IMG/VR virus record: IMGVR_UViG_3300037200_000074 | Reading direction: 5' to 3' (one strand) | Origin: an uncultured virus (IMG/VR IMGVR_UViG_3300037200_000074) | Lineage: Duplodnaviria; Heunggongvirae; Uroviricota; Caudoviricetes | Length of the DNA stretch: 20,000 bases | Shown here: positions 1,129 through 16,531 of the stretch, piece after piece | Layout of the letters: the number at the start of each line of letters is the position of its first letter | Position numbering within the stretch: position 1 is the stretch's first letter | Position numbers and translations under genes: made by a program | Notes under the pieces: generated by a model | Database searches by the model: none | Told to the model about the DNA's origin: nothing | The model's input: the letters and a program-made list of their open reading frames with translations, nothing else

Positions 1129-1608
1129 TTACGAAGATGGGGTCACTGGTAAGTCCCGGACTTTGTTAAGCTTACTCTTAGCGTAAGGTAGGGTAGCGAC
1201 AGTAATACGCTTGCGAGTTTCCTCCTGGTCGAGCCCCTCATCCATGCATTCCAGCAGAGTCTTCTTGACAATAGCGCTTAGCTCCGGCTGAGTAAGCTCT
1301 TGCCATTTCTCCATGAAGCTGTCGAGATCATCATCGTCTTCAAAACGACCGATCATGGCATCAAAGTGAGTTGGATTCATGAGCGGTGACGGCGCACCGC
1401 CACTCCAGTTACGGATGGATAGGAACGCCGTGCCTATCGTCTTAAGTTCATCGTCCTTATAGTAGTGCTCTCCAAGAAGGTTACGCAGCTTAAGACGAAT
1501 GACTCCTTTGGGCAGCCCTACCGTAACTCTGGTGTTGTCTTTTAATACGTGCGTAAACGTTGCATCTTCAGACGACACCGGAGCTACGGATGTAGCTTCG
1601 TTGTTCAT
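1129..1608 (-). CDS. Probable tail assembly chaperone
   Basis: Immediately downstream of the tail tube gene; AGGGAG SD; charged, largely helical 159-aa protein. Confidence 0.6.
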   Translation of the reverse strand: MNNEATSVAPVSSEDATFTHVLKDNTRVTVGLPKGVIRLKLRNLLGEHYYKDDELKTIGTAFLSIRNWSGGAPSPLMNPTHFDAMIGRFEDDDDLDSFMEKWQELTQPELSAIVKKTLLECMDEGLDQEETRKRITVATLPYAKSKLNKVRDLPVTPSS

Positions 1609-1630
1609 TTGCTTCTCCCTAGGTTATTAG

Positions 1631-2122
1631 TTACGCCGCCCCCGCCAGCGTATTACCACTGAACGTTGCGTCTGACGTGTCTCCCGTGAGTTGAATGCGA
1701 CGCGGGAAGAACATTTTGTACGTTCCGGTGATATCTTCATTTCCCTTGTACGAGCCCGCGTCCGTTTGATAGATGATACCATCGACGTATTGGAACATAT
1801 CGACAGAAGCATCATCGTTGCGAGTAGTTTGCTGCATGGTCACTTCGATGTCGGGATTACCCGCGAAGTAGTTGTCCTGACAGAACTGACCGAGCGTGTC
1901 GGGGATACCGTCCTGACGGTAGTACTGGATGGTTACATCCCAACCATTGAAGACTGGTCGAGCTACGGTGACGCCACCGTTGTTGGTCGGAATGACTTTG
2001 CGCTCAGTCCAGAGTGGCTGAATGTGGGTGTCGGAGTAAAGACCAAACTCTTGAATAACCTGTCCGTTCAACGTAATGCTGACGGTAAGGTCTCGGCCTA
2101 TATTTTGTTTATGCTGTGACAC
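1631..2122 (-). CDS. Tail tube protein
   Basis: 163 aa, beta-rich, directly follows the sheath; GTG start with AGGAG SD. Confidence 0.8.
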   Translation of the reverse strand: MSQHKQNIGRDLTVSITLNGQVIQEFGLYSDTHIQPLWTERKVIPTNNGGVTVARPVFNGWDVTIQYYRQDGIPDTLGQFCQDNYFAGNPDIEVTMQQTTRNDDASVDMFQYVDGIIYQTDAGSYKGNEDITGTYKMFFPRRIQLTGDTSDATFSGNTLAGAA

Positions 2123-2132
2123 TATTCGTCTC

Positions 2133-3677
2133 CTACGTCAACGCGGTGTTGGTTACGACTTGTACGTCTACAGACTGACCGCCTGTGACATTGATAATGA
2201 AGCGGTTCACGTTAGCGAGGTACGCTACAACCGCGTCCGCCTGCATGATACCCATCTTGATTTGGGTAACTGGATTGTTCGTGAGATCACACGTAAACGT
2301 GTACGCGTCGATTGCGTTACCTATCTGAGGCGCAAAGTATCCGTTACCTGCAGCCCGTGCCGCTTCACGCAAAGGATCGTCAGCCTGGGTAGACTGAGGT
2401 TGATCAACGAACTGACCCATCGTAATACCGGATAGTGCTCGCACGATGTCGTTGGTCTTACGCGTATATGCGATTTCGTTCTGGGCGATGTTCGACGAGG
2501 AATTTTTACCATGTCGAATACCCAGTGCGTTTGCGCTCGGAATGCGGTCTGCGATGAAGTCAATGCCCGCCGCTTGCAGGGTAGCCTCGTCGGAGTCACT
2601 ATAAGTCTGTGCCAGTGGCCCGTAGGTCTTGTCGGTACCGAGTAGACCGTAAACTTTCTTGTTGCCGGGTGAGACGTGTGGGAGTACCGAGCAGCACACA
2701 CCTGCAAGAACACCCGCCGAAGGAATATAGATATTCAGACCCAGGTACGTGTCGAAGTAAACCGCGAATCCCAACATGAGGATGAGGTACGGATCGTCTG
2801 CCCCTGCACTAGCCTTCGTAGAAACTGCAGTGGCCACGCTAGTACCAAGTGGAAAGTTACCGATAGCTGCTGAAGCTTCAGTACGTGCGAATTGCAGCAT
2901 GGTGGACCAAGTCGTGTTATCGGTGCAACCCGCTAGCCAAAACACATCCATACCCTGATTAGACAGCGCCTGCATACCTGTACGCATCGCGCCGCTGACA
3001 GTGCCAAGCAGTGTAGCTGATGTGATACCGGAGGTACCGTCTGTACCACCTGCAAGTGTTGCTGTCATACCCGCAGTAAGCTCGACCGTGCTAGAAGTAC
3101 CGGCACTAGCAATGATATAGTTTGAAGGAGCGTTATATGCTCCGCCGGTGTTCATAGCTGCTATCAGCGCAGCTACCGAACCAGTAGCTGGAATGCGATC
3201 GTAAATTTCTGCCAAACTACCCGCTAGGTACACCGATGCCTTTAAGGTAGCGGGGAACGTACCTGCACTGATGGTTACCATAAGGGTATCACCCATAATG
3301 CCGTTGTAAAGTCCCGTAAATATGATCTGCTTAGTACTACCACTAGCTCCGAGGTAACCTGTAGCCGCCGTAGAGGTTCCATCATCAACTCGAACAGTTG
3401 AGAGGCCACCCTGTGGGCTTTGTTTCAAAAAGACTGCGCCCTCTTGAACCATAGGGGCTACATTACCTGCAATTGGCAGACCGTAGTTACTAGTGAGATC
3501 ACTAGCGCTGCTGTTGTTGAGGACAACGTTCAGCGGACCCCAGCTACCCCCACCAACTACCGCACCTTGCAGCGTAGAGCCACTAGTAGTAATCTGCGGC
3601 TGTGGCGGTAAGACATTTACGTAGACGTCATCTGCACCAACCGCGCCGCCTGCAGTGCCGTAGCTAACCTGACCCAT
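2133..3677 (-). CDS. Contractile tail sheath protein
   Basis: 514 aa with sheath hallmarks: DVYVNVLPP, G..WGPLN, LAGGTDG, PSAGVLAG, SPGNK, and C-terminal CDLTNNP...I..G.MQADAVVAYL. Confidence 0.9.
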   Translation of the reverse strand: MGQVSYGTAGGAVGADDVYVNVLPPQPQITTSGSTLQGAVVGGGSWGPLNVVLNNSSASDLTSNYGLPIAGNVAPMVQEGAVFLKQSPQGGLSTVRVDDGTSTAATGYLGASGSTKQIIFTGLYNGIMGDTLMVTISAGTFPATLKASVYLAGSLAEIYDRIPATGSVAALIAAMNTGGAYNAPSNYIIASAGTSSTVELTAGMTATLAGGTDGTSGITSATLLGTVSGAMRTGMQALSNQGMDVFWLAGCTDNTTWSTMLQFARTEASAAIGNFPLGTSVATAVSTKASAGADDPYLILMLGFAVYFDTYLGLNIYIPSAGVLAGVCCSVLPHVSPGNKKVYGLLGTDKTYGPLAQTYSDSDEATLQAAGIDFIADRIPSANALGIRHGKNSSSNIAQNEIAYTRKTNDIVRALSGITMGQFVDQPQSTQADDPLREAARAAGNGYFAPQIGNAIDAYTFTCDLTNNPVTQIKMGIMQADAVVAYLANVNRFIINVTGGQSVDVQVVTNTALT

Positions 3678-3838
3678 TACTTAGATTTCTCCTCTTGGTT
3701 GCTAGGCGCAGCTTTTTCCGCATCATCGTCGTTGTACCGAACGAACACCCCGGTACCCTGCATCTCGGTGGGAATGGTGTCGTAGCTCTCCCCACGAGTG
3801 TATGGACCGAAGGTTTCACGACATCTATACTTAATCAT
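3677..3838 (-). CDS. Small hypothetical protein (53 aa) preceding the sheath
   Basis: Not in the ORF track. MIKYRCRETFGPYTRGESYDTIPTEMQGTGVFVRYNDDDAEKAAPSNQEEKSK. ATGA overlap with the upstream stop and TAATG overlap with the sheath start fill the gap exactly. Confidence 0.75.
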   Translation of the reverse strand: MIKYRCRETFGPYTRGESYDTIPTEMQGTGVFVRYNDDDAEKAAPSNQEEKSK

Positions 3839-4476
3839 AATTGCCCCACTTGCAGCTTTTGTCTTGCCGGTGCTCCGACTACGACATTGGTTTCGATTGT
3901 GATGACCTGTGTTGCATCAACTTCTACCACTTCAGTAAAGTCTGATTCGTACATAAACCTACGCACATACACAGAGTCTACCTGTTCCATATCTACAGTT
4001 TTGTTTACTTGATATTTGAACAGCGTGATGGTGCTGTCACCATTACGCAAGCGGTATGCGTCCGTTAACAATATTCGAACTAATTTACATATAGCTTTCC
4101 GACTCTCTTCGCTATATGACCATACTTCAATTATTGCTTGCTTCTTCTCGCGGGCTACCTCGATATATTCCGTTCCTGAAGCAGGAACCCCTGTTGACCC
4201 AGGGGTGGTGTAATTCACCTGCGCAGGCTTCCTATTAAGGAAAGGGAAGACCCCGCCCTTATCTCCTTCGTAGATTGCGACCTGAGCTAGTTTATTCTCC
4301 AGTCGCTTCATAACGTGATTCTGAATAGGGTGTCCATAGGCTATGAGCGTAGCCGGTATTTGTCCTGCTGTAGCCAATGGATTCGGGAAGCGCATAGGAA
4401 CATTAGGCTGATAAGGAGCTAAGCCTTCAGCTATGAAGTACGCTAAATTATCTAAGACCTCGTCAATGTCTGCCAT
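3835..4476 (-). CDS. Putative tail terminator / tail completion protein
   Basis: Position before the sheath; 'IEVWSYSEESRKAI' and 'YVRRFMYESDF' pattern resembles tail terminators. Confidence 0.6.
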   Translation of the reverse strand: MADIDEVLDNLAYFIAEGLAPYQPNVPMRFPNPLATAGQIPATLIAYGHPIQNHVMKRLENKLAQVAIYEGDKGGVFPFLNRKPAQVNYTTPGSTGVPASGTEYIEVAREKKQAIIEVWSYSEESRKAICKLVRILLTDAYRLRNGDSTITLFKYQVNKTVDMEQVDSVYVRRFMYESDFTEVVEVDATQVITIETNVVVGAPARQKLQVGQL

Positions 4477-6833
4477 TATGCTTGCTGTACAGCCTCAAGA
4501 ATTACACCAGGATTAAATGTACTAGTAGTGGTGGTGGCCGCTGATTTATACGTAACGCTCATTATGCCATTAAGCGTAGTGTTAAGAGTTGAAGTAGGTG
4601 TAAGAGCTTCAACGAATACCTGCGCTACCACTAAGCCAGTTATACCAGTAGTCGCACTTGTACCGTTTAAAATACGCAGCCATCCTGAGACCGCTCCCGT
4701 CGATCCAATATTAGTAACCGTAAAGAAAATTTCGATGTCGAAGGGTACAGCGGTGCCTGTTGCAGCAGAAGTTACTGCTGCCGTCGCGATTGCAGCGTCG
4801 GCCGTGGTTCCGGTCGTGCCGTATCGCAGCGTAAACGTTGAAGCGTTCGCCGCCGTTGCGGTACACGTACCAGGCAACCGTGCGCGGTAGACGGTGCCCA
4901 CAAGTAGCCCACCTGTGCCGACCGGGGCCGTGGCAATTACGGTCTCGGTCGTATTGAGCCCGGCCGTTGCCGCAGTCTTTGCCTGCCCACTAATAGCCAT
5001 ACCAACATTGTTGGTAATGTTCTTAGCTGTCGAGGACGTGCTGTTATCGGTGATCGCGGTCGTGTTGCCACGCAAGTTGTTGTTGTAAATCTCAAGCGCG
5101 CCGTATGCACCGGAGTTAATCGTAATGCCGGTAGTGTTTGCACCGATGCCACCAGTAGGCCCAATGCGATTACCTATGGCTTTGAGTTCAGTTACTGAGC
5201 CTGCAGAGGCGTTGAGTACGATGCCGATGCCGTTACCCGCGATACGGCACAACGAGACGCCTATGTCCTGACAGCCATTTGCGACAACGCCGCTCGTGCC
5301 GTTGCTATAGATGTCGCAATTTACTACGTCGATACCCGTTGGTAACGTAGCAGCGGTAGAGGCTACTTGCAGACCGTTTAACGCTGCAGACGACATCCAA
5401 GAGTTGAGAATCTTGACTCGTTGTACATTACCCGTTCCAACAATCTGCACACCGTTCTGACCTGCAGTATCAAAGTATGTGTTTACTGCATAGACACCAA
5501 ACACGCCATTTGGTGACGTAGGATTTAGGCGCATATTGTTGAGCGCACGAATCCAGTCGCAGTCTGATATGAGTAAAGAACCGCACTGATTTACTTCACA
5601 GTGCGATATAGCTGCCGGAGCCCCATCGCAAGTAATATTGTGAAGTATAGAATTGACGTTAGCACCATTACACTGATTATCGAAGTTTATGGTACCTGAA
5701 AATTGTATGTTATAAGTTGCACAGAGAGTACCATTGTGAATGATGCCATTATAGACGGCGGTGAAGGCGCAGTCTCGCGTGTTGATGTAGACGTTCGACC
5801 CACCATTGATGGCATAGCCGCCGGTCTTAAACTGTACCGCGCCAAGTGCTGTAGTAGTAGCTGCTACTGCAGTAGTACATCCTGTGAGAGACGTAGTAGT
5901 AGACCCGGTAAAGTTTACGAGGGTCCAAACGTTCTGACAGTTAACATAGCAAGAACCAGCACCACCACCACCGGGTATAAACGAGTTCGCGGCAATCGTA
6001 AGTGTGACGCCGCCAGTGGTTGGGATTGCAACAGCCGCGCCGGTAAGCGTCGTAGCATTGCCGTTAAACGTAATACCCTCGAAAGTCTGTTGCCAATCAC
6101 CGCAGGTGATGAAGTCTGCAGATTGCGACGCACTCAAGAATATTGTCTTGAACTCACCTGCACCAGCATGGTGGAAGTGCTTACCGGAAGGAATCGATGG
6201 GTTCGTACCGCTCGAAAGAACCATCGTACAAGGCGGCCACAGGAGCACACTGCCAGAAGGCGCGGCGGCGTAAAGAGCGTTTAGGTTCGCCGAGTCATCA
6301 GTAGCGCCGTCGCACGCAAGGTTCTGATACGAGTTTGCCGTGACTAAGACAACTGCTGCGTTAAATTTTGAGATGAAGAGTTTGTCTAGTGCGGCCAGAG
6401 CACCCTGCAAAGTTGTAGTTGCAGGATTCAGCATCGCAGTAACTTGAGCTGCGGTTAAGTCAAGCAGAGCTCCGAGGGCACCAGTGTTGTTACCCTTGAT
6501 AGTGTTCGCAGGCGCATTAGCAAGATACGAGTTAGATACTGAGCTAGCAGCTAGTGATAGATTGGGATTACGAGTATCGCCTAAGTTAGTGACTGGGCTA
6601 ACAGTCGTAAGACTCTCAAGATATGAAAGAGACAGTGCAGTATCAGGTATGCTTCCTGCAGTGATATTAGCGCCGGAGATAGTCGGTGCACTACCTGTGA
6701 GGAATTGATGCGTACCGCCTGCGGAGTCCTCATAGTAAGGCAAAAACGTGGCGCTATCCATGTAAATGGATATTTTACCAGTTGATGGCGGGGTAGGAGT
6801 AGCCTGTGATACTAAAGTAAGTACGGATGCCAT
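4476..6833 (-). CDS. Fiber/spike protein with pectate-lyase-like right-handed beta-helix (putative depolymerase or glycan binder)
   Basis: 'ACDGATDDSANLNAL' (pectate_lyase_3-type N-terminal motif), Asn/Gly/Ile-rich PbH1-like repeats (IYSNGTSGV, IAGNGIGI, IYNNNLRGN), fiber-like N-terminal segment 'ANTIKGNNTG...DLTAAQV', beta-sandwich-like C-terminus. Confidence 0.75.
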   Translation of the reverse strand: MASVLTLVSQATPTPPSTGKISIYMDSATFLPYYEDSAGGTHQFLTGSAPTISGANITAGSIPDTALSLSYLESLTTVSPVTNLGDTRNPNLSLAASSVSNSYLANAPANTIKGNNTGALGALLDLTAAQVTAMLNPATTTLQGALAALDKLFISKFNAAVVLVTANSYQNLACDGATDDSANLNALYAAAPSGSVLLWPPCTMVLSSGTNPSIPSGKHFHHAGAGEFKTIFLSASQSADFITCGDWQQTFEGITFNGNATTLTGAAVAIPTTGGVTLTIAANSFIPGGGGAGSCYVNCQNVWTLVNFTGSTTTSLTGCTTAVAATTTALGAVQFKTGGYAINGGSNVYINTRDCAFTAVYNGIIHNGTLCATYNIQFSGTINFDNQCNGANVNSILHNITCDGAPAAISHCEVNQCGSLLISDCDWIRALNNMRLNPTSPNGVFGVYAVNTYFDTAGQNGVQIVGTGNVQRVKILNSWMSSAALNGLQVASTAATLPTGIDVVNCDIYSNGTSGVVANGCQDIGVSLCRIAGNGIGIVLNASAGSVTELKAIGNRIGPTGGIGANTTGITINSGAYGALEIYNNNLRGNTTAITDNSTSSTAKNITNNVGMAISGQAKTAATAGLNTTETVIATAPVGTGGLLVGTVYRARLPGTCTATAANASTFTLRYGTTGTTADAAIATAAVTSAATGTAVPFDIEIFFTVTNIGSTGAVSGWLRILNGTSATTGITGLVVAQVFVEALTPTSTLNTTLNGIMSVTYKSAATTTTSTFNPGVILEAVQQA

Positions 6834-7063
6834 TACAGAATCATCAACTCGCCTTCACATGTTACGGTGCCATCAAGTTCTATAGGGCCTACCGCTACCT
6901 GGTAAGTCCCCGCTGGAATGTCAAACGTTGTTCCACCGGGGACTACCTGCGGTACCTGTGCAGAACCACTCGACGTTGGCAAAATCGAAGGATCAATCAA
7001 GTCCGGAGACGTGATCATCGATAGGATGCCGTTGATAATCGTGAGCGGTTTGCGGTTTGCCAT
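6833..7063 (-). CDS. Small hypothetical virion-associated protein
   Basis: 76 aa; TAATG overlaps at both ends; beta-rich C-terminus. Confidence 0.7.
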   Translation of the reverse strand: MANRKPLTIINGILSMITSPDLIDPSILPTSSGSAQVPQVVPGGTTFDIPAGTYQVAVGPIELDGTVTCEGELMIL

Positions 7064-7572
7064 TACGCGAGGGTAATAGCGTACTGTGGATCGAAGTTGA
7101 GATTACCTGCTGCAGTAGCTTCACCAACTTGTTGACACACTGCACCAGCCGCAGTCGGAGCGACTGAAACGGTTGCGCCAACAGTACCTAAGTACTGGGT
7201 AGCTCCTGGGGTAAGACCAGTGACTGCATTGTTATTACCGTAAAAGTAAACTAGTGCAGTAGCTGCAGAAGAAAAAGCGGTCAGTACGAAGCCATGTGCT
7301 GGCTTACCCGCTGCAGAATTATCAGCGTTGCGCACGTTGACTACGCCTGCATTAGGCCACACGTTGACCAACGCCCCCGCCGACAATGCCTCACTAGCAA
7401 CAATGCTAGCAGTGTCTGGTCCAACACCAGTCGGAAGCATGGTGATATCGATTTGACCTTGAGAGTTTAGTGCAGGGATTGCACCTGCGCTGCCAACACC
7501 GGCAGAAACTTGAAGTCCTCGCACCATGGTAATTACACCATTTACGAGATTAAGAAATGCGTTACCTGCCAT
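7063..7572 (-). CDS. Putative capsid decoration/cement-like protein (DUF2190-like)
   Basis: Ala/Gly-rich; ASEALSAGALV...NAD...GFV...GLTPG..QYL...APT...QQVG pattern; AGGAG SD. Confidence 0.6.
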   Translation of the reverse strand: MAGNAFLNLVNGVITMVRGLQVSAGVGSAGAIPALNSQGQIDITMLPTGVGPDTASIVASEALSAGALVNVWPNAGVVNVRNADNSAAGKPAHGFVLTAFSSAATALVYFYGNNNAVTGLTPGATQYLGTVGATVSVAPTAAGAVCQQVGEATAAGNLNFDPQYAITLA

Positions 7573-7581
7573 GATGATCTC

Positions 7582-8481
7582 CTAAGTGGTTAGTATTATA
7601 GGGGAGCGAGGGTGCCACAGTATAGTCGTGGCGTTAACCGCAAGGCCAACTTGAGTATTGTACAAGTCGCCGTTAGCTGGAGTTGGAACAACTTGAGTAA
7701 TGAAGCCATTACGGCTAAGGTAAAGGGGTAATCCCGGTTGCCAATTCCAGGTTGGTTCTATAACATAACCAAACACAACTGAAGTTACTTCAGCAGCCGC
7801 TGCATATGCAGCAGTAATTATGCTTACCGGAAGATTGATTAAGTTAATGTTAGTCGAGTCAGCGTAAACAATGAAGCCTTGGTATTCTACAACTGCTCGG
7901 TCGCCTGATAAAGTGCCGCCTGCAGTACCGCTAGTAATAACTAGTTCACTAGGGTTTGCATTAGGCGGTGGCTCATAGATTTGGCCGGCCCCAACATTAA
8001 CATATATTGAAGGCTTAGGCGTTGCTACGCTAAACTCAGGTATCTCAGGTGGGCGGTAAGGAAATACTGGGCGCGTTTCGGGATGTTCGATACCTTCAGG
8101 AACAGGCTCGTCTTTGATTACCTCAAGAATAGCTGTAAGGAACCACTCATCAGGAAATGGTTTAATCAACAGATAGTCGGCACCTACCCTCTTATGATCA
8201 GAAACTGACTTCTGACCCATAGAAGTGACTAATACTATCTTACCAAGGTAGCCGCTCTTCCGCAGGGTCAGAGCTACCTCAACGCCTGTCATACCTCGCA
8301 TGATTATGTCAAGTAGAATGACTACAGGCTTAAGACCCTTAGTAATTGCCTGTATAAGAGACTCACCGTTGTCGAATACGCCAATTACGTTCATCCCATA
8401 CTTAACACACACAGCTTTGTTACGTTGAAGTTGCTGTGTTGAGTCATCGGCCATAGCTACTGTGACGCCTTTTAGGTACAT
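7582..8481 (-). CDS. Response-regulator receiver (REC) domain fused to a decoration/cement-like domain
   Basis: aa 1-123 REC with D12-D13, D58 (LLDIIM), T86 and K107-P108. Pro-rich linker aa ~124-178. C-terminal domain (WNWQPGLPLYLSRNGFITQ..P...QVGLA) resembles the downstream protein. Confidence 0.85.
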   Translation of the reverse strand: MYLKGVTVAMADDSTQQLQRNKAVCVKYGMNVIGVFDNGESLIQAITKGLKPVVILLDIIMRGMTGVEVALTLRKSGYLGKIVLVTSMGQKSVSDHKRVGADYLLIKPFPDEWFLTAILEVIKDEPVPEGIEHPETRPVFPYRPPEIPEFSVATPKPSIYVNVGAGQIYEPPPNANPSELVITSGTAGGTLSGDRAVVEYQGFIVYADSTNINLINLPVSIITAAYAAAAEVTSVVFGYVIEPTWNWQPGLPLYLSRNGFITQVVPTPANGDLYNTQVGLAVNATTILWHPRSPIILTT

Positions 8482-8822
8482 GTGCCTAACCGCGCGTCAA
8501 TTTTAGCCTGATACTTTTGAATGATCGGACTGACCTTATCGTTGTACTCTTCTTGCAAGCTGTCAACTTTAAGGTCTAGCTGTTTTTGATAATCTTCTTC
8601 ATGCCACCTATACAAGTAACTCAGTAAAAGATCGCCATTACGACCTCCAAGAGCCCTTGCTTTGTCCGCAAATTTAACCGGGCCAAGCCGTATTGTATTA
8701 TAAGCTTCTTCTGCCTGCAGTATAGCTGCACGAAGCCACTCTTGGATAGACTGAATCTCTGCATCTCGCTCTGCCAACAAGTCCTTCACAGCTTCCAGAT
8801 ACTCGCGTCCACTCAAACTCAT
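8472..8822 (-). CDS. Hypothetical helical protein
   Basis: 116 aa, charged and helical; overlaps both neighbours (ATGA at 8819-8822). Confidence 0.7.
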   Translation of the reverse strand: MSLSGREYLEAVKDLLAERDAEIQSIQEWLRAAILQAEEAYNTIRLGPVKFADKARALGGRNGDLLLSYLYRWHEEDYQKQLDLKVDSLQEEYNDKVSPIIQKYQAKIDARLGTCT

Positions 8823-9592
8823 ACGAATAGGCTCTCGGCGATAAGTTGATATCCTTGGAGACCGACTGTGAATGAAGTTACGTTCTGAATTTGGTATCTA
8901 TTACCATTCTGGTCGGATATAATATATCCAGGTTCGAGGTACAGCCCGTTGAGGATAGGAACGTAAATGAACAGTTCAGAACGATGAGTAGTAGTAGGTT
9001 GCTTGATCTCGGGAGTAGGACCGAGTCGTTTGTATGGTTGGATGCCTAGTGGAACAACAGCAGGACTAAAATCAGCATCATCAGGATCGCCAATATAGTA
9101 ATAGCCATCTCTAAGTATGATGGCCCGTTCATTTTGCTTACCCGCTCCCTGATACTTAACATACCCTAGCAGCTGCTCCGAGTCGCCACTACCCCATGAG
9201 ACTGACAAGCTAGCCTGTATCTCAGTGCGCACAAACACATTGTACGATAATGGACGTAAGTCAGCTACAGTGAACATTTCATAGTCATTGCGGTAAGGGT
9301 GGATGCGACAAGCAACGTCACCTACTTTGAGGACGCCTGCATCACACATGCCCGCAAAGATCATGTCATAGATGTTGGTGTTCTCTTCAGCAATAGCAGC
9401 ATTACTACGCATCATGCGAATACGAAGATCAGAGTATATCTTGTTTTCAGTATTGATTATAGACCCAGATGACGGTGTGCGACCATCGCTGCCATCAGAT
9501 AGTCGGTATATATCGTAAGGCTCTCCAATGATATCAGCAGCTACGCCTCTACCGTATTGAACAATAGAGTCTAATTCTTCAAAATCTATCAT
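8819..9592 (-). CDS. Putative head closure / neck protein
   Basis: Follows the adaptor; 'IGEPYDIYR', 'LKVGDV' and 'PGYIISDQNGNRYQI..V' beta-barrel patterns. Confidence 0.55.
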   Translation of the reverse strand: MIDFEELDSIVQYGRGVAADIIGEPYDIYRLSDGSDGRTPSSGSIINTENKIYSDLRIRMMRSNAAIAEENTNIYDMIFAGMCDAGVLKVGDVACRIHPYRNDYEMFTVADLRPLSYNVFVRTEIQASLSVSWGSGDSEQLLGYVKYQGAGKQNERAIILRDGYYYIGDPDDADFSPAVVPLGIQPYKRLGPTPEIKQPTTTHRSELFIYVPILNGLYLEPGYIISDQNGNRYQIQNVTSFTVGLQGYQLIAESLFV

Positions 9593-10398
9593 ACACGCAC
9601 TCGACCGCCTGAAGCAGAGCCTAGTCTACCTGAAGGGTCAGGACCAGCGTATAGTGCATTACCTAACATGTTCACGTAGTAACGAAACAGTTGAACACGC
9701 TGGAACAGTTGATCAGGTCTAAATTGTGCACCACCTTGGTCGCCTTTAGCACCTGCTGAAGTAAGAGCTAGTGTAGTGCGTGCGGATAAGATGTCTTTGC
9801 GCAGTTGCAAACAGACGGGGATGTACCCATAGAGAGTCTTGATAGTACCATCACTTTGCTTAAGGTCAAGAGATGGTTCCGGGTAAGTATTTCCCGGATT
9901 AGTGACGTTAAGTGCGATCCCATTGTTATCACTTACCGATACTGTCAAAGTAAAAGCAGTTGCGCGTGTGATTAATAGCTGACCGAACACTGGTGAAGTA
10001 GTTAAAGGCTGTCCTGCATCCGGAGGTTGAAAGTTAACTCTTCCCGCGACACAACCATTACCCGAGTTGTTGATAGCGTTCACTAATCCTGCCATTACAG
10101 CGCCACGTGGATCAGTAGCCAGGAGGTCAGACATCTGAGTAGTGTACAATATTTGTTGGCCGTCGATGCCTACAGTTAGTACTTGACTCAGTTCAGGTGT
10201 GCCTGTAGCAACTATGAGACCGATAGGCCGACCAGTAATGATCGACTCTTCTTCAATCCCTAAATTGTTCATATAAAATTCAAGCTGACCGACACGTGAC
10301 AAGTATCGATAGCCAGCGACATGACCGCCCGTCGGTACACCAGACATTGGTACCGTCAGTAAATCTCTGATGTACGCTTTTTCGATGAGTGTCAGCAT
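9589..10398 (-). CDS. Putative head-tail adaptor with an inserted beta-domain
   Basis: Starts 'MLTLIEKAYIRDLL'; helical C-terminus 'RVQLFRYYVNMLGNAL..GP' ending '..RVRV'; position after the capsid genes. Confidence 0.6.
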   Translation of the reverse strand: MLTLIEKAYIRDLLTVPMSGVPTGGHVAGYRYLSRVGQLEFYMNNLGIEEESIITGRPIGLIVATGTPELSQVLTVGIDGQQILYTTQMSDLLATDPRGAVMAGLVNAINNSGNGCVAGRVNFQPPDAGQPLTTSPVFGQLLITRATAFTLTVSVSDNNGIALNVTNPGNTYPEPSLDLKQSDGTIKTLYGYIPVCLQLRKDILSARTTLALTSAGAKGDQGGAQFRPDQLFQRVQLFRYYVNMLGNALYAGPDPSGRLGSASGGRVRV

Positions 10399-10417
10399 GA
10401 CATATCCTTACCGACGA

Positions 10418-10452
10418 CATAGCCACCTGGGAGAAGCGGCCAGGTGGCTATG
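10418..10452. terminator. 13-bp perfect stem-loop (possible terminator or RNA-processing hairpin)
   Basis: CATAGCCACCTGG-N9-CCAGGTGGCTATG in an intergenic region; no strong U-tract. Confidence 0.55.
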
Positions 10453-10489
10453 AACGTTATGGCTCCGCGCCTATGCTTCACCACAGTGT

Positions 10490-10747
10490 TTAGGCAGTAG
10501 CCGCAATCTTGACGCCTGCGTCACGAAGTATCGTGACTTCAATAGGGTCCGTCAGCTTCTGACCTACAGTGTATCGGCAATATGATCCATTGACCGCAGC
10601 TCCCGTGGTTTCGAGTACCGTCCATTCCTTAGGCTTTTTGATAGGCTTCATCGGCACAGTGACTTCGATTGGATTGAGGACTTGCTGTTGCATGTCGCGC
10701 AGTGCAACCGCTACTGCCATCCTCTGAACTGCTGGGTACTTAATCAT
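10490..10747 (-). CDS. Small hypothetical capsid-region protein
   Basis: 85 aa; ATGA coupling with the upstream gene. Confidence 0.7.
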   Translation of the reverse strand: MIKYPAVQRMAVAVALRDMQQQVLNPIEVTVPMKPIKKPKEWTVLETTGAAVNGSYCRYTVGQKLTDPIEVTILRDAGVKIAATA

Positions 10748-11319
10748 TCTGCGAGCCCCTGTGAAATCATGTCCTGAGCCGTAGCATTGTCAACTAGAAT
10801 GCGTTGATTTTTGTAGGCTCGAAACACTCCGGTAGGTCCTGCATAGCCGAATGATTTGAGAGCGGTCACTTCAGTAGATGAGGTAGACACGTTCTCGGGA
10901 TAGTGAACCGGAAGGATATCCAGTAAACTGCCGGGGTAGGTTTTAACCGCAATTGTAGCGAGGGTGATGTCCACGCCACCGTTCAGCACTGCTGTTGCCT
11001 TCGCGCCTGTGGCTGACGCACTTGCAAAGTCCGTAGCCCAAGGGTTGCTGCCTGCGGTAATGGCTGCTTGAATAGCAGCTGCAATGTTTGTTGCTACTGT
11101 GCTAAGGCTGTCGGTACCCCCGACGCTAACACTCAACGTGTCCGGTTGGACAGAAGTTGCGTCAGTACCCACCGTAAGCTGAATGACTTCATTCGGAGTA
11201 GGTTGACCTTGAACAGTAATTGGAATGATGGTCGAACCGGCTTGCACATCGGGTTGCACACCCTGAAAGGATTTAAATGCAGGTGAGCCGGGAACTGGAC
11301 CGCCGCGAATAGAGCCCAT
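10744..11319 (-). CDS. Putative head decoration / structural protein
   Basis: Directly after the MCP; AGGGAG SD; Ala/Thr-rich; ITVQGQPTPNEVIQLTV...VATNIAAAI module. Confidence 0.6.
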   Translation of the reverse strand: MGSIRGGPVPGSPAFKSFQGVQPDVQAGSTIIPITVQGQPTPNEVIQLTVGTDATSVQPDTLSVSVGGTDSLSTVATNIAAAIQAAITAGSNPWATDFASASATGAKATAVLNGGVDITLATIAVKTYPGSLLDILPVHYPENVSTSSTEVTALKSFGYAGPTGVFRAYKNQRILVDNATAQDMISQGLAE

Positions 11320-11340
11320 GAAATTCTCCCTAGTTGTGAA

Positions 11341-11366
11341 GGAGGGCCGGAGTTACCCGACCCTCC
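11341..11366 (-). terminator. GC-rich hairpin after the MCP stop
   Basis: mRNA GGAGGGUCGG-GUAACU-CCGGCCCUCC; only a short U-run follows. Confidence 0.55.
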
Positions 11367-11372
11367 TCAGCA

Positions 11373-12818
11373 TTAGACCTGCGAACCAACTTCGAATACT
11401 GCTGCGCGTTTGTAGCGAGCAGGCGTAGCGGAGGGAATCACTGCCGGAGTGATGGTCGCGTCGGTTGGCACCGTGAAGCCACCGATGTAAAACCAGCCCT
11501 GAGACATGATCTGACCCATGCGGTCGATTGGGAGACGGTGCACCATGGCGATGTCTTTCACCATCCGGATATCCGAGATACCTCGACCTGTGAGTTCAGC
11601 CGCAACAGTCGCCACACCTGCAAACGGCGCTTCCTGCACAAACCTGTCAGCGCATACTACTGCACGCCGAGCGAACAACGTCTTGCCGGCAGTGTTAGTG
11701 AAGGTAAAGATCGGCATGTTTGTCGTAGGTACGAACGTCATACCGAAGTTCTTGAGTACCCGAGCGTTAGCATACGACGAAGATTTTTCCGCACCTTGGG
11801 TAAGGATTTGGAATGCCGGGTCGGAGAACATCTGCGCGTCGAGAATGGGATCGATGAAGCACGGGAACGTACCATCCGGGAGCGGCGGGCGCACCTGGTT
11901 GAGACGGAAGCCTGCTACGATGTTGATAAACGTCTGCAACGTCGTGGTAGACGCAGCTGAGAGTTCAACACGCGACCGTGCAGTACCTGGACGGTAGTAT
12001 GCCGGAGCGTCAGCAGCATAGATGATGTCGTTTGCAGCTGCGGTGATGCCAGTGCCCTGAATGGTCAGAGTGCCCGAGAAACCGACCTGGAACAACGGCG
12101 CTGCCATAGTCGAGGTGTTGCTACCATCCGGCACCGCTGCCAAGATGGTGATGGCCGTCTTCGCGCCGGTAGTCGCATTGACGTAATACGCCGGGAGCGG
12201 GTAGACCGACGAGGTAGCTTGCGGTAGACCGTAAGGGAATTGATATCCCTGAATGGTCGCCGTAGCGAACGCAGTGTCGAAGCCGTAGATGTTATCCACG
12301 TGAACGGTAGTATTAGCGCCAGAGGTAGCCGAAGCTGCCGTAGCGTAGGTACGCCCGCCTTCATACGCACGAAGAAGAACGTTGATAGCCTTGAGGTCGA
12401 GTGACAGACCTGCCTGGCGACCGAGGTTCTCGATGTTCTGTTTGAAGCCATCGGCGACAAGCTCGCGCTCTTGATAGAGGTTGAGGTCGAGCGCATACGG
12501 CGTCATACCGATGATGACTTTGTACTGCTCCACACCGTAGGTGGGATTCGCTGCACCGATACCGCCGACGTTGGTCAGGCCGTTGTCGATGTTAACGTTG
12601 GTGGTCGGGTCGATGTCGTCAACGACCGGAACCAGTTCACCAGCACGAGAGTAGATCGTAACTTCACCGGAACGCACTGGCTGCGGTTTGCGATACACAG
12701 CGGTACGAACGACGCAGTTGGGTTCGAGTTGGTCTTGAAACTCCCGGTCCAGCATGTTCTGTTGGAAAGCAGGCTGTAGAACAAGGGGGAAATTTTCATA
12801 CCCCGCGCCAGTTATCAT
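11373..12818 (-). CDS. Major capsid protein (large, probably with an insertion domain)
   Basis: 481 aa after the scaffold; 'FKQNIENLGRQAGLSLD' long helix, 'FIDP', 'PIDRMGQIMSQGW'; GC3-rich codon bias consistent with high expression. Confidence 0.85.
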   Translation of the reverse strand: MITGAGYENFPLVLQPAFQQNMLDREFQDQLEPNCVVRTAVYRKPQPVRSGEVTIYSRAGELVPVVDDIDPTTNVNIDNGLTNVGGIGAANPTYGVEQYKVIIGMTPYALDLNLYQERELVADGFKQNIENLGRQAGLSLDLKAINVLLRAYEGGRTYATAASATSGANTTVHVDNIYGFDTAFATATIQGYQFPYGLPQATSSVYPLPAYYVNATTGAKTAITILAAVPDGSNTSTMAAPLFQVGFSGTLTIQGTGITAAANDIIYAADAPAYYRPGTARSRVELSAASTTTLQTFINIVAGFRLNQVRPPLPDGTFPCFIDPILDAQMFSDPAFQILTQGAEKSSSYANARVLKNFGMTFVPTTNMPIFTFTNTAGKTLFARRAVVCADRFVQEAPFAGVATVAAELTGRGISDIRMVKDIAMVHRLPIDRMGQIMSQGWFYIGGFTVPTDATITPAVIPSATPARYKRAAVFEVGSQV

Positions 12819-13034
12819 AAGGTGGCTCCACTGTTACTTGTAACAGGAGCGCCTCATGAGGCTCTTCCCCAAGTATCGGCTCCTTACTGAATCACGGACC
12901 GTTCCGAGTATCATCAGCAAGTGCAACGTCCTGATCGTTGCTTATGCCGTTATATTCCCTACGTCCTCTTGAGTTCCTTCTGCGTATTTACGAAGTAGGC
13001 TTCCCCTCTTTCAAAGGGAAGCCTATGAATTATA
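12819..13034 (-). promoter_or_regulatory. Structured 216-nt intergenic leader of the MCP gene
   Basis: Inverted repeats at 12831-12846, 12851-12862, 12895-12906, 12923-12941 and 12996-13025; SD GGAG at 12826-12829. Confidence 0.6.
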
Positions 13035-13709
13035 CTACCGCTGTCCGAGCGAAGCCCATGCCGATTTGTGTTGGTCAGCATTCACTGCCGTTCTGTCAGC
13101 GTGATTCTGACCAGAGCTAGGGGCAGTGCTACGACCGGGACCAGAGCCACCCGAACGACCATCACCACCAGTGCCAGTAGCTCCTCCCTTAAAGAGGAAG
13201 GGCATTTCGGTCTTGAGAGCGGTAATTTGTTCTTCATGACCGACTACCTTCCCGTCTTCATACTTAACCTTATCCAGGTCAATTAGCTTATCCAGCTTAT
13301 TGAAGGCTTCGTCAGTGAGTCCTTGTGTCTTGCAGTATTCTTTCAAATCCGTGTGAATAAGGCGCAAGTCGCGCTGGCGCATTTCTTCTTGAAACTTAAG
13401 CTGTGACTTAGTGAGTTCCTTCTCACGGTCCTCCGCTAGCTTCTTCCAGTCGCCAGCTTCCTTAGCGGCCTTTTCTTCAGCTTCATGTTGTTTCTTCTCA
13501 TAGTCCGCAAGCTTAGCAGAGGCTTCGGAATGCTTTGTCCGCTCTGCAGCGGCTTCATTCCGTAGCCTCGTAACATAAGCCTCGTCGTAAGTAGTAGACC
13601 CACCACCGCCCGTACCACCTGTACCCCCACCGCCGCCTGCGCCTGCGCCGCCTTCGCCCTCAAAACTACACAGGCCAAAAAGACTGCGAGCCAAACTGTT
13701 AAGATCCAT
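13035..13709 (-). CDS. Capsid scaffolding protein (GP20-like)
   Basis: Start corrected to ATG 13709 (GGAGGAG SD). Gly-rich N-terminus, 'YVTRLRNEAA..R' coiled coil, 'LKTEMPFLF' motif, G/S-rich tail. Confidence 0.85.
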   Translation of the reverse strand: MDLNSLARSLFGLCSFEGEGGAGAGGGGGTGGTGGGGSTTYDEAYVTRLRNEAAAERTKHSEASAKLADYEKKQHEAEEKAAKEAGDWKKLAEDREKELTKSQLKFQEEMRQRDLRLIHTDLKEYCKTQGLTDEAFNKLDKLIDLDKVKYEDGKVVGHEEQITALKTEMPFLFKGGATGTGGDGRSGGSGPGRSTAPSSGQNHADRTAVNADQHKSAWASLGQR

Positions 13710-13738
13710 GCTTCTCCTCCATGCCTCCATATTCGGGA

Positions 13739-13784
13739 CAAAAAGAAACACACCTCCAGGGTCGATTGCTGGAGGCGTGTTCTT
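13739..13784 (-). terminator. Intrinsic terminator upstream of the scaffold gene
   Basis: mRNA AACACGCCUCCAG-CAAUCGACC-CUGGAGGUGUGUU followed by UCUUUUUGU. Confidence 0.7.
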
Positions 13785-13883
13785 AGAGAAGCCTAGGTTA
13801 CTGTGATCGTGTCATCATCAAAGCCTTGAACAGTGACGAGTGAAATTTTCAGGGTAAGTTTGGCTTCCGCTTCCAACTGTTCG

Positions 13884-14144
13884 TTAGAGCAGTTGGTCAA
13901 CCCTCTTGTTCAACAGATCGAGCTCAGTGAGCGCGAGGTTGTCGAGTGCGACGGAGACTTTGGATTCTGCGCCCGTAATGAGCGGAACTAGGAATGACGG
14001 AACGTCAAGCCTGGGAAGGACGATCGTATTGAATGCAGTGAGTGCCTCACCCGTCAGAGCAGGAAGTTGCTTCTCCACTCCGTTGAATGCGGCGTCTGCC
14101 GCTTGCTTCACTGCATCCAAGATAGGACCGAGGTATGAACTCAT
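13884..14144 (-). CDS. Hypothetical amphipathic protein
   Basis: 86 aa; AGGGAG SD. Confidence 0.7.
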   Translation of the reverse strand: MSSYLGPILDAVKQAADAAFNGVEKQLPALTGEALTAFNTIVLPRLDVPSFLVPLITGAESKVSVALDNLALTELDLLNKRVDQLL

Positions 14145-14187
14145 CTTATCTCCCTGTGACTGGTAGTCTTGATAAGCCCCGCTTCGC

Positions 14188-14796
14188 CTAAGGAGCTACG
14201 AATTCCTTGTTCTCTTCGGTAGGTTCATCACCCGTCGCACTGTTGGATGCAACACCAGGTTGACCAACCGTCTCACCTTGATATAGAGCTGCCCCTGCCT
14301 GCAGGTCTTCATCATGTTGTTCGATCGTCCGCTGTTCCACCGGAGCAGGCGTCAACGTAGACGCGCTGATAGGACCCCGGCGATTGTAGTCATGACCTAC
14401 CGTGACAGGTGCCGGGTTCGCCAGCGTAAGGTCCGGTTGCGTTACCGGGTTGCTGTCCGGATTGCTAGGAATGGCCGCCGGTACTTTGCCGGATTCACGC
14501 AGATGCCGCTGAACGATATTTTGCACATCGTTGAGCATGAGAGCCTCGTCGTTGTTCAACCGCTGGATGAACTCCATACCGAAGCTCGGAGCAATGATCG
14601 ACCGCAGGTCGGTCTTGAGCAGAGTAGCTGCACCCGCTGGCGTCTCTGCAAGCAACGTAAGTGCTGCAGCTACTGCAGCAATTGCAGTAGGGCTGACTTG
14701 GGCTTCACCTGGAACGGTGTACGCCTTGAGTTGATTAATTTCGGAGTCGCTGAGTTCCACCTCAAGCTTATCCAGAGCCTCGAACACTTTGTCCAT
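14188..14796 (-). CDS. Hypothetical protein (helical N-terminus, acidic Pro-rich disordered C-terminus)
   Basis: 202 aa; AGGAG SD. Confidence 0.75.
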   Translation of the reverse strand: MDKVFEALDKLEVELSDSEINQLKAYTVPGEAQVSPTAIAAVAAALTLLAETPAGAATLLKTDLRSIIAPSFGMEFIQRLNNDEALMLNDVQNIVQRHLRESGKVPAAIPSNPDSNPVTQPDLTLANPAPVTVGHDYNRRGPISASTLTPAPVEQRTIEQHDEDLQAGAALYQGETVGQPGVASNSATGDEPTEENKEFVAP

Positions 14797-14863
14797 GTAA
14801 TCTCCTAGAAAGTAGCTAGCTTCTTCCTAGTCTTATTCCCGGTTAGCGTCCGAACAACTCCTA

Positions 14864-16531
14864 CTACGTCCCGGAACCACCTGTAGCATTACCACCAGTC
14901 GCCGCAGGCTTTAGTATCTCTAGTTGCTCTTCACGAAATTGATCAAATTCTTTCTGAGCCTGGTCAGCTATGGACGCGGGGTCGGGGTGCCCAAGGGCTG
15001 CAGCGAGTGCTTCGAACACGTAACGCATCGGCAGCATCTGTTTGCCTTCACGCGAACTACCCCCGGCTGCAAGTAGTAATGCCTGGGCCGTCTGATATAA
15101 ATCAGCGCCTCTGGGCTGCCACCACGATGGCCAGACATTGCGTAAGGGGTAGTCCTCTTCAGGTATATCAGCAGTTGTGACTCCCCAGAGTTGAATAAAG
15201 CCAAGCTGAACTCCCTTCAATATTAATTTGATGAGTGGAATCATCATCCCGTCACCATAGTCTAGTCGCATGCGACCTACAAGCCATACAAGTGCTTGAT
15301 GCAGTAGCTCAAGCGCCCTACCAGACTGTGGGCCACCCGCATGTTCCTGGTCGGATTTCATGCCACCGACTACTTCCATAGACCACTCTCGGATAAGCTT
15401 AGACCATTCCCGCGCTGCAGTCAAACCTTGACCAGCTATCTCCAGCATCTTTGCGTCACCATCCGAAGGAATGGACACAATGCGCGCCGGAGTGCGGTCA
15501 ATGTTAGGAGTACCCTCTGGTGTTTCCAAGCCTACTGCAGGTAGCTGTGTGCGCATACCTCCGCTCTTGATAGCCAGCAGCGGGTCCATGCTATACTTGA
15601 AGCCACGTCCTATTTGAGATACTAGATAATCTAGTTCAATGCAGTTATCGACGATGGCTTCGAAAGTACTCGGACCATCGATTTCTTCTCGCTCATGAAG
15701 ATTCCGACCCCATATCGCTGGGACGACTCCCCATTTATGCGGGTAATTTCTACTCTTGTCCGGCGTCCATTCATAACGACCGTTAGTACCATCGTCTTTC
15801 TTCTTTCCGATATTATTAAAATCTTTACGCCGTAGGGGTATCATCCATTGCTCTTGGTATGCATCGAGCGTATGGTTTACCCAGAACTCGTCATTACCTG
15901 ACGGATCGTCCTTAGGATCATATCCTAATTCAGTACGTGTGTAGCCAAAGTCCAGTAAGTCCTTGAGGCTTGTTTTGTATATTTCGGCAAGTGAGACTAA
16001 CTCATCGGGGTCGTCATGATCGAACACTGGCTGCAAGTCAGCCCCGCGTACTACTCGTACCCAAGGCCGTCCTGACTTGGTGACCTTCACGATAGCGCAG
16101 ACTGAGCCGGACGAACCTTTCTGAACGCACTCAAACATTGTTGCGTCCATCTTTACCACGTAGCGGATGAATTCAATGATTTGAGTAAGCTTCTTAGTCT
16201 TACTGTCGCCAGCCTCATCATCTTCACCCTCCACAGCAGATGCGAAGGGGTCATACACTTTAATGTAAGAAGAGTGGCCTTCTCCGAACGTGAGTGCTGC
16301 GGTCTCATCCACAACTACCTTTGCCATCCGATAACGTGCGGACGGACGCCGCTCGCCTATGGAGACATAGACGCCATTGTCGTCGAATTCTGTCTCAAAT
16401 GGATAGGGTAAGTTATCGTAGATAGTACCATCCCGCACCCGGTCAAGAGCATCGAGTTCTTTCACTCGCTCGGGAATGGGATCAGGCCATTGTTTAAAGA
16501 AGCTCTGCTTGAGAATGCGGAACTCAGACAT
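14864..16531 (-). CDS. Portal protein (SPP1 gp6-like)
   Basis: 555 aa after terL; 'WGVVPAIW..N', 'DAKMLEI' and 'QSGRALELL..AL' motifs. Confidence 0.85.
   Translation of the reverse strand: MSEFRILKQSFFKQWPDPIPERVKELDALDRVRDGTIYDNLPYPFETEFDDNGVYVSIGERRPSARYRMAKVVVDETAALTFGEGHSSYIKVYDPFASAVEGEDDEAGDSKTKKLTQIIEFIRYVVKMDATMFECVQKGSSGSVCAIVKVTKSGRPWVRVVRGADLQPVFDHDDPDELVSLAEIYKTSLKDLLDFGYTRTELGYDPKDDPSGNDEFWVNHTLDAYQEQWMIPLRRKDFNNIGKKKDDGTNGRYEWTPDKSRNYPHKWGVVPAIWGRNLHEREEIDGPSTFEAIVDNCIELDYLVSQIGRGFKYSMDPLLAIKSGGMRTQLPAVGLETPEGTPNIDRTPARIVSIPSDGDAKMLEIAGQGLTAAREWSKLIREWSMEVVGGMKSDQEHAGGPQSGRALELLHQALVWLVGRMRLDYGDGMMIPLIKLILKGVQLGFIQLWGVTTADIPEEDYPLRNVWPSWWQPRGADLYQTAQALLLAAGGSSREGKQMLPMRYVFEALAAALGHPDPASIADQAQKEFDQFREEQLEILKPAATGGNATGGSGT

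Follow-up and report, generated by a model that had tools for sequence, protein, structure and literature searches.

A response-regulator receiver domain fused to a putative neck-fibre bead in an uncultured tailed phage

Receiver (REC) domains are cytoplasmic switches joined to DNA-binding or enzymatic outputs. A very different kind of protein partner is the subject of this report, and its closest described relative is a fibre subunit of the Anabaena/Nostoc myophage A-1(L), a cyanophage whose five neck fibres have been described as chains of beads (Yu et al. 2024, PMC10966104). According to that account, gp82 is a trimer held on the neck protein gp5, itself a pentadecamer, via gp82N (residues 1–125), a 125-residue neck-binding domain with a pilus-protein-like fold; gp82C (residues 126–241) is the first bead, onto which the N-terminal hairpins of gp81 dock, gp80 is the distal bead, and gp82C was not modelled in the A-1(L) map (PMC10966104). 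Here we analysed a 20,000-nucleotide (nt) stretch of DNA from an uncultured virus of the Caudoviricetes (IMG/VR record IMGVR_UViG_3300037200_000074), referred to below as the window, in which one gene encodes a 299-amino-acid (aa) protein, P0001, with a REC domain ahead of a homologue of gp82C. An initial annotation of the window had described this gene as a phosphorylatable-looking receiver fused to a virion decoration-like domain. Our analysis makes it very probable that the fusion is genuine, that its C-terminal half forms the first bead in a fibre of the bead-chain kind, and that the fibre cassette arrived later at a locus where the receiver gene was already resident.

The initial annotation had reported one uninterrupted open reading frame (ORF), and the 299-aa frame was borne out, with the correction that the gene lies on the minus strand; the plus-strand frame at 7582–8481 is full of stops and was rejected. 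An IMG/VR contig of 11,315 nt (L004) is 99.4% identical to window positions 4481–15795, with 68 differences, and holds the same frame; the sole difference within the ORF is H96P (codon 96, window 8194–8196). Most relatives have Pro at position 96 (SDPK), and the His of the window is an unusual allele. Contigs from three other DNA runs over 7000–9000 have no indel, joint or loose end and jointly cover the ORF, while the coverage holes of single runs (a 2-nt gap between pieces at 7983/7986 in run X2, nothing at 7871–7937 in run X3) are not probative. A 471-nt contig of run X4 spans 7815–8285, and with it parts of REC, linker and bead, with 0 differences. Independent contigs thus keep the frame through the linker, where a stop, a frameshift or a chimeric join had been sought. 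Furthermore, a second protein, P0003 (286 aa), repeats the same two-domain build across 99% of P0001 at 41% identity. The ORF is genuine, and the first observation of the initial annotation is confirmed.

The stretch is present in many runs labelled peat metagenome. Two 151-nt contigs from a peat metatranscriptome library lie on 7545–7819, exactly where the fusion gene ends and the following 169-aa gene starts; they give a weak hint of expression and no proof of transcription, as DNA carry-over is possible. Among 50,697 phage records, blastn of 7000–8900 found no match, and tblastn of the whole 299-aa protein matched seven records, none with at least 80% coverage.

The N-terminal part of P0001 is matched by the Pfam family PF00072 (Response_reg) over aa 8–117, which correspond to profile positions 1–109 of 111 (51 bits, where the cut-off is 30.2; E 1.9e-13). 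This is the receiver profile named in the initial annotation, and all seven relatives scanned gave PF00072 scores of 51–69 bits. In alignments with sequences from the Protein Data Bank (PDB), D12/D13, D58, T86 and K107-P108 fall on the catalytic positions of CheY and Spo0A receivers, in agreement with the acidic pocket, phospho-acceptor, Thr and Lys-Pro pair listed at the outset; the natural sequences that score highest are those of the Spo0A receiver 1dz3 (E 1e-9), CheY 4iga (1.8e-9) and CheY 1tmy (2e-9). The position three residues before the conserved Lys (K-3) is Leu104, preceded by Tyr103, also as first noted. After D+2, where Pro is common, this subfamily has Arg, Lys or another residue. 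An AlphaFold2 (AF2) model built from an 83-row alignment has the (beta-alpha)5 fold, with strands at 7–11, 31–36, 54–58, 81–87 and 103–107 and five helices; its predicted local distance difference test (pLDDT) score is >90 over most of residues 1–90 and 72–88 over 91–125. Within the nine aligned subfamily sequences, which are 40–63% identical to P0001, D12, D13, D58, T86 and K107 are all invariant, and so is the motif KPFPDEWFL (aa 107–115) at the start of helix 5. The helix 5 (alpha5) face is the surface that receivers commonly use for partners. An NCBIfam scan of P0001 returned generic receiver matches alone, all far below their cut-offs, and no specific regulator family.

The receiver is followed by a linker with 14 Pro among 55 residues (aa 124–178), and no ATG, GTG or TTG occurs in frame between codon 106 and codon 235. 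A Pro-rich linker of about 55 aa lacking an in-frame start had been described from the outset, and both features hold. Since no start codon lies between codons 106 and 235, the bead domain could be produced solely as part of the fusion. The AF2 pLDDT is <50 for residues 136–178 and >90 for residues 180–299, and the predicted template modelling score of 0.48 implies no fixed mutual orientation of REC and bead. In the alignment, the first ~20 residues of the linker resemble the C-terminal tail of P0005, a receiver that stands alone. Given this tail and the similarity to gp82, which starts at about residue 174, the join lies roughly within residues 146–175.

The relationship of the C-terminal domain to gp82C emerged from several searches. 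With phmmer, the bead matches residues 123–239 of PDB chain 8keg_a (A-1(L) gp82) at E 8e-6, and a profile of 112 bead-family members gives one strong solved match, to residues 132–241 of the same 8keg chain a, labelled "neck fiber gp82N" (E 1.6e-23). In tblastn against the A-1(L) genome, P0001 aa 174–297 match gp82 (E 3e-7). The bead is of the gp82C type, with the motif EPTWNWQPG, and residues 1–123 of P0001 are a receiver, not gp82N. The AF2 model of the bead domain has a pLDDT of 95.4. Compared by VIA-align, it resembles 8saj of phage Adjutor (Z 11.6, root-mean-square deviation 2.6, 112 residues aligned), 8qsy of HFTV1 (Z 10.3), 8giu (10.1), 8hdt of Pam3 (9.2) and 6qyy, the base of the phi29 head fibre (6.6). 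Foldseek also placed 8saj first (E 4.1e-4, TM score 0.64), with 6qyy at E 7.5e-3 and TM scores ranging from 0.5 to 0.64. As gp82C was not modelled in the A-1(L) map, fold searches cannot match it.

The family to which the bead belongs is large. A HMMER search with aa 125–299 against 1.84 billion cluster representatives found 1730 proteins at E <= 0.001, 155 of them at E <= 1e-10, mostly of 130–220 aa and with the bead at the very C-terminus. A Pfam scan covered 37 of the 150 listed matches, namely all 21 of at least 250 aa, three of 228–241 aa and 13 shorter ones, and left out nine of 215–224 aa. No receiver was present in these 37 proteins. Three passed the 24-bit cut-off of PF09956 (Phage_cement_2) and one more matched below it; neither P0001 nor the 169-aa protein matched PF09956 at E up to 0.01. 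Collagen repeats, Mtd_N or DUF5907 occur in others. What precedes the bead in other family members is a fibre or tail element, namely collagen, Mtd_N or the N-terminus of phrog_1718, a "tail protein". The C-terminal domain had been called decoration-like and paralogous to the next gene. Because the nearest homologues are fibre beads and the fold is that of decoration proteins, "decoration-like" is right for the fold, which is shared with capsid decoration and cement proteins and was found by structure comparison, the PF09956 profile having missed P0001; a head decoration protein does not follow from it, and a neck-fibre bead is the better description. The paralogy is weak when compared directly (BLASTP E 0.007 over 49 aa), and both proteins match the same part of phrog_4368 (E 1.9e-12 for P0001, 1.7e-16 for the 169-aa protein). 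Taken together, P0001 is, as judged from its sequence, a true receiver whose active site is intact and which is tethered to a structural module of the virion.

A bead match was also seen in Xanthomonas phage FoX4 (L002 5001–5321; record positions 40298–40618), on the strand opposite to gp42c and just upstream of tail-fibre genes; the gp42c annotation may have been called on the wrong strand.

Downstream of the fusion gene, the window continues with genes for proteins of 169, 76 and 785 aa. The 169-aa protein is 49.1% identical to A-1(L) gp81 over all 169 aa (tblastn E 5.7e-49); searched alone against PDB sequences it found nothing below E 0.1. The 76-aa protein begins with 17 residues that are weakly similar to the N-terminal hairpin of the gp81 homologue (BLASTP E 0.003), and it also shows weak similarity to the gene at the same position in another IMG/VR genome, L012 (E 0.001); no family in Pfam, PHROG or NCBIfam matched it. 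It may be a connector and, as its N-terminus resembles the residues that contact the bead in the complex model described below, it may also plug into a bead. The 785-aa protein occupies the place of gp80 without similarity to A-1(L) gp80, and has no Pfam, PHROG, NCBIfam or PDB sequence match. The order of the window (receiver plus gp82C bead, gp81 homologue, 76 aa, 785 aa) thus parallels gp82-gp81-gp80, and a bead protein followed by a gp81-like protein occurs in three phages, the window, A-1(L) and L012. In L012 (3135–5555), a 163-aa bead protein, a gp81 homologue (53%) and an adaptor-like 133-aa gene stand between terminase and portal. The part before the first bead differs in each of these phages, being gp82N in A-1(L), a short strand plus collagen in L012 and the receiver in the window. 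Since the cassette occupies different genome places in unrelated phages, it looks mobile. The GC content is 0.44–0.51 across the parts and does not set the cassette apart. When 23 window proteins were searched by tblastn against A-1(L) positions 1–20,000 and 52,000–68,304 (36.3 of 68.3 kb), two were matched, the 169-aa protein and the REC fusion. From these comparisons, the ORF appears to open a four-gene cassette for a bead-chain fibre, with the receiver in the place of the neck-binding domain of gp82.

Of the 68 positions at which L004 differs from the window, 48 cluster within the 785-aa gene in a patch of ~260 nt (4509–4770, the C-terminal ~90 codons). The gene as a whole has 45 changed codons, 36 synonymous and 9 not, and 42 of the 45 lie in the patch. 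This looks like recombination from a diverged allele at the fibre tip; the patch lies at the end of the L004 contig, so an assembly-end effect is possible.

Docking of the gp81 homologue on the bead was modelled with three copies of P0001 aa 170–299 and three 169-aa chains, a trimer being assumed and the partner alignment having three rows. The ipSAE score was 0.92 in three of three runs, against 0.26 for the best control, with 100% contact agreement and a partner pLDDT of at least 84; the ipSAE mark applied was reached by 116 of 157 solved complexes and by 2 of 215 mismatched pairs, a calibration that is rough here, where own alignments and multi-copy chains were used. In the predicted interface, P0001 residues 293–299, 215–216, 252, 254, 265–266, 275 and 277 contact residues 2–18 of the 169-aa protein. 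The gp81-like N-termini are thus placed on the distal face of the bead, which would leave REC at the proximal end, and this polarity of the predicted model agrees with the one reported for gp82C and gp81.

The receiver has its own relatives, most of them lacking a bead. Word-based searches of 5.8 billion clusters gave P0003 and P0004 near the length of P0001 and P0005–P0010 at shorter lengths; P0005 and P0006 are one sequence with different predicted starts, and P0007 is nearly identical to the protein of a metagenome locus (L006). Eight distinct subfamily members result. Two have the bead (P0001 and P0003), one has an unrelated viral domain (P0004), and four are apparently solo receivers of 125–148 aa with no C-terminal partner (P0005/6, P0008, P0009 and P0010); the eighth was left out of these classes, as each of its two contigs either is short or stops at that point. 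On the same architecture and on REC-less orthologs at the locus, for which the initial annotation had outlined a search, the outcome was the same build in P0003, solo receivers without a bead, and beads without REC in the 37 proteins scanned. Among proteins of 525–2000 aa, none of 281 candidates had a receiver at E <= 0.001, which is weak evidence. Pattern scans for the subfamily found two IMG/VR loci (one of them the same phage), one metagenome locus and one genome locus (L007), the last of which we judged spurious at 28% identity over residues 103–205. In P0004, the receiver is followed at aa ~150–226 by a viral domain of ~60 residues matching the C-terminal ends of phrog_30556, 34633, 10272 and 21918 (function unknown); this domain had no PDB match below E 0.85, and in the ESM Atlas it matched viral clusters at 0.90–0.91.

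The gene neighbourhood indicates which half came first. In all three phages with visible context, homologues of the 257-aa and 116-aa genes precede the receiver; the 116-aa protein matches a 115-aa protein of L005 (BLASTP E 2e-23) and a 117-aa protein of L006 (E 2e-16), both directly before the receiver. L005 is a relative of 62.5 kb, 85% complete, with the same capsid gene as the window. Its receiver is solo, and its end overlaps the start of the homologue of the 213-aa gene (L005 10377–11018; 56% identity, BLASTP E 2e-82), and the sheath gene comes after that homologue; the locus lacks the bead as well as the 169-, 76- and 785-aa genes. As the L005 receiver directly adjoins the 213-aa gene, the cassette (window 4476–7947) sits between two ancestral neighbours. 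We infer that a solo receiver gene stood between the 116-aa and 213-aa genes and that a mobile fibre cassette was then joined in frame at its 3' end. The initial annotation had proposed a captured signalling domain tethered to a structural module; the tether stands, and the fresh capture gives way to a resident solo gene that gained the cassette. In L005 9971–10024, the residues of the first strand (YLKGVTVI) are encoded upstream of the sole ATG (MADDS...), and the stretch holds no ATG, GTG or TTG, which suggests a non-canonical start codon or another translation start.

What the receiver does at this place is a matter of weighing. We tentatively favour, at a little short of an even chance, a role of the phosphorylatable receiver as the proximal docking module of a bead-chain fibre. 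In such a particle, P0001 would be the proximal subunit of the fibre, its bead fold being trimeric in solved relatives; the distal bead face, including the last seven residues, would take the N-terminal hairpins of the gp81 homologue as modelled, and the 76-aa and 785-aa proteins would presumably be connector and tip. REC would dock the fibre on the neck region, probably via the invariant alpha5 surface KPFPDEWFL, which is the least certain step, and docking or its timing would probably depend on phosphorylation by host kinases or acetyl phosphate. The last step is suggested by the five phosphorylation residues having been kept. We favour docking because REC stands where gp82 has its anchor, because the bead has no independent start codon, because the fusion has been kept across 41% identity between P0001 and P0003, and because the gene is translationally packed among structural genes. 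Moreover, REC is conserved in the subfamily and what follows it is variable (the bead in P0001 as in P0003, viral domain in P0004, none in solo members), and a conserved N-terminus with a variable C-terminus is the virion-protein pattern of an anchor with swapped distal parts. The constant place of the receiver gene behind the 257-aa and 116-aa genes in three of three phages, and the fibre or tail elements that precede the bead in other members of its family, also speak for docking.

Several points weigh on the other side. Presence of the receiver in the particle and its contact with a neck protein are assumptions of this reading, and the neighbouring proteins of 116, 257, 269 and 213 aa, without known family, are "neck" by gene order only. 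A disordered tether of 55 residues carrying three independent RECs is unlike the compact trimeric base of gp82N, and it is hard to see what L005 would gain from a neck-bound solo receiver lacking a fibre. The docking complex is a prediction with an assumed trimer and a three-row partner alignment. Strict conservation of the phosphorylation residues fits cytoplasmic signalling at least as well, and solo receivers occur in other phages as auxiliary signalling genes, as with CDS-30 of Alteromonas phage V22, a solo CheY-like gene so listed in Table 2 of PMC7289586, and with solo receivers of other phages found in a BFVD search.

These last points lead to the strongest alternative, which we consider possible though rather unlikely, that P0001 acts in the cytoplasm late in infection as a decoy or phosphate sink of a host two-component pathway, or binds a host target, with the fusion to the bead incidental or trimerising and the fibre attached to the particle by some other part. 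Catalytic residues invariant in nine of nine sequences fit such a role, and so does the solo state of most distinct members. The lack of a kinase fits it too. The initial annotation saw none in the window, which was borne out, and L005 likewise has no HATPase_c domain and, as its receiver, this one alone; with no kinase ATPase domain in a relative that is 85% complete, any phosphodonor would have to come from the host. The annotation of solo CheY-like genes as auxiliary metabolic genes for signalling, as far as the table entry for V22 goes, points the same way. The bead without its own start codon argues against this alternative, as the fibre's only gp82C-type subunit then carries REC at the anchor end. 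So do the retention of the fusion in two lineages only 41% identical, the location away from early or auxiliary genes, in a structural operon where stop and start codons overlap at either end of the gene, and the failure of any specific host regulator family to match, every NCBIfam hit being far below cut-off.

A more specific form of the docking proposal, that the host kinase or acetyl-phosphate state at assembly gates attachment or deployment of the fibre at the neck, strikes us as doubtful. If it were true, the host signalling state would be written into the morphology of the phage particle, and the solo receivers would be phosphorylation-dependent neck or assembly factors.

The bead might instead bind the capsid, making P0001 a head decoration that displays three receivers outward, possibly as metal- or phosphate-binding knobs. 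The best fold matches, from 8saj down to 6qyy, are indeed decoration or cement proteins, and three bead-family relatives pass the Phage_cement_2 cut-off. However, the homology is to gp82C and that of the neighbour to gp81, both fibre beads; the modelled distal bead face is taken by gp81-like hairpins, P0001 itself lacks a Phage_cement_2 match, and the cassette is absent from L005 with the same capsid gene. We therefore regard this as improbable, and give as little credence to a structural pseudo-receiver that is never phosphorylated and serves as a folded adaptor alone. Leu at K-3 and the Arg, Lys or other residue in place of Pro after D+2 would suit the latter, as would the lack of access of extracellular virion proteins to kinases. 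Pseudo-receivers usually lose some of the catalytic residues, and the invariance of D12, D13, D58, T86 and K107 across the nine sequences speaks against one here. Lastly, a fusion that is an assembly chimera, a frameshifted gene pair or a decaying pseudogene, as the low-complexity linker and the different evolutionary neighbours of the two halves might hint, is hardly credible given the same frame in L004 and three other runs, the exact bridging by the X4 contig, the repetition of the build in P0003 and the modelling of both domains with pLDDT >90.

The assigned genes of the window all lie on the minus strand (Table 1). Their order is DHH phosphoesterase, large terminase (PF03237), portal (phrog_64), scaffold (PF06810) and major capsid protein (phrog_1357), then proteins of 191, 85, 269, 257 and 116 aa with no known family, the REC fusion, the proteins of 169, 76, 785 and 213 aa, a tail sheath (phrog_23, E 4e-27) and a tube-sized protein. 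For the capsid protein, no record of the phage collection exceeds 32% identity, the closest being Ralstonia and Komagataeibacter phages; the nearest named phages by this protein include Ralstonia phage Raharianne (32%), and the annotation of its neck genes is uninformative. The 116-, 213-, 257-, 785- and 76-aa proteins had no NCBIfam match, and the 213-, 257- and 785-aa proteins no usable PDB sequence match. The window belongs to a novel myovirus-like phage. Downstream of the tube gene, among the tail genes, is a GIY-YIG homing endonuclease (PF01541; phrog_314, E 4.4e-28), and upstream of the terminase genes is the DHH/DHHA1 phosphoesterase (phrog_4771, E 1.4e-100), which is 43% identical to its counterparts in phiCbK-like Caulobacter phages. 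Vibrio and Pseudomonas phages also have matching proteins, and together these matches hint weakly at a proteobacterial host.

Table 1 Features of the fusion gene, its domains and neighbouring genes in the window (20,000 nt)
Feature	Position	Strand	Basis or remark
REC-bead fusion ORF	7582-8481	minus	299 aa, ATG start
Receiver (REC), aa 1-123	8113-8481	minus	Pfam PF00072
Catalytic codon D12	8446-8448	minus	
Catalytic codon D13	8443-8445	minus	
Catalytic codon D58	8308-8310	minus	
Catalytic codon T86	8224-8226	minus	
Catalytic codon K107	8161-8163	minus	
Pro-rich linker, aa 124-178, probably disordered	7948-8112	minus	composition and AF2
Bead domain, aa 179-299	7585-7947	minus	gp82C homologue, decoration-protein fold
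gp81 homologue, 169 aa	7063-7572	minus	tblastn to A-1(L) gp81, phrog_4368
76-aa protein, candidate connector	6833-7063	minus	weak N-terminal likeness to the 169-aa protein
785-aa Thr/Gly/Ala-rich protein, presumed distal fibre part	4476-6833	minus	position in the cassette alone
116-aa helical protein	8472-8822	minus	3' end overlaps receiver start by 10 nt; conserved upstream neighbour
213-aa protein, before tail sheath gene	3835-4476	minus	L005 homologue
GIY-YIG homing endonuclease	316-885	minus	PF01541; phrog_314
DHH/DHHA1 phosphoesterase	18896-19924	minus	phrog_4771

Both halves of P0001 are of known kinds, and their combination was found here only in the window phage and in P0003; searches of open-access text turned up no account of a fusion between a receiver and a virion fibre. 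A receiver with an intact active site on a virion fibre bead, where the characterised homologue has its neck anchor, is in an unusual place. If the receiver is in the particle, two-component chemistry would have been recruited into virion architecture, and host physiology might then tune particle morphology; if it is a cytoplasmic decoy, the subfamily would be a small conserved group of late-expressed phage receivers with a distinctive KPFPDEWFL surface. The comparison also extends the bead-chain neck-fibre cassette of A-1(L) to unrelated peat phages, and places its bead in a large family (1730 representative clusters at E <= 0.001) with a decoration-protein fold.

Set beside known systems, the receiver has the (beta-alpha)5 fold of CheY, Spo0F and the N-terminal domain of Spo0A, and with it their acidic pocket, phospho-acceptor Asp, Thr and Lys-Pro pair; it differs by Leu at K-3, by the invariant PDEWFL at the start of alpha5 and by belonging to no cellular subfamily. 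Unlike single-domain receivers, it is encoded in a phage structural operon, and where a DNA-binding or enzymatic output would be usual, its partner is a domain of the virion. Solo CheY genes of the V22 type, likened here by the table entry alone, are also small receivers in a tailed phage without a cognate kinase, but stand among metabolic and auxiliary genes and are not fused to virion modules. The bead has the same fold as PF09956 and decoration proteins (the N-terminal base of phi29 gp8.5, Pam3, TW1, Adjutor and the SHP of phage 21), whereas P0001 and the 169-aa protein have no PF09956 match and the homologues of P0001 are fibre beads, not capsid-bound proteins. The closest system remains the A-1(L) fibre. 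Homology of the bead to gp82 (PDB 8KEG), a gp81 homologue next to it and the modelled docking of hairpins on the bead are common to both; the 169-aa protein is 49% identical to gp81, and the bead of the REC fusion is of the gp82C type, related to the 169-aa protein directly at E 0.007. The distal protein of the window, with 785 aa, is unrelated to gp80, and the cassette lies inside the head-tail operon, while that of A-1(L) is far from it. Above all, where A-1(L) has gp82N, the window has a receiver and a Pro-rich tether of 55 residues.

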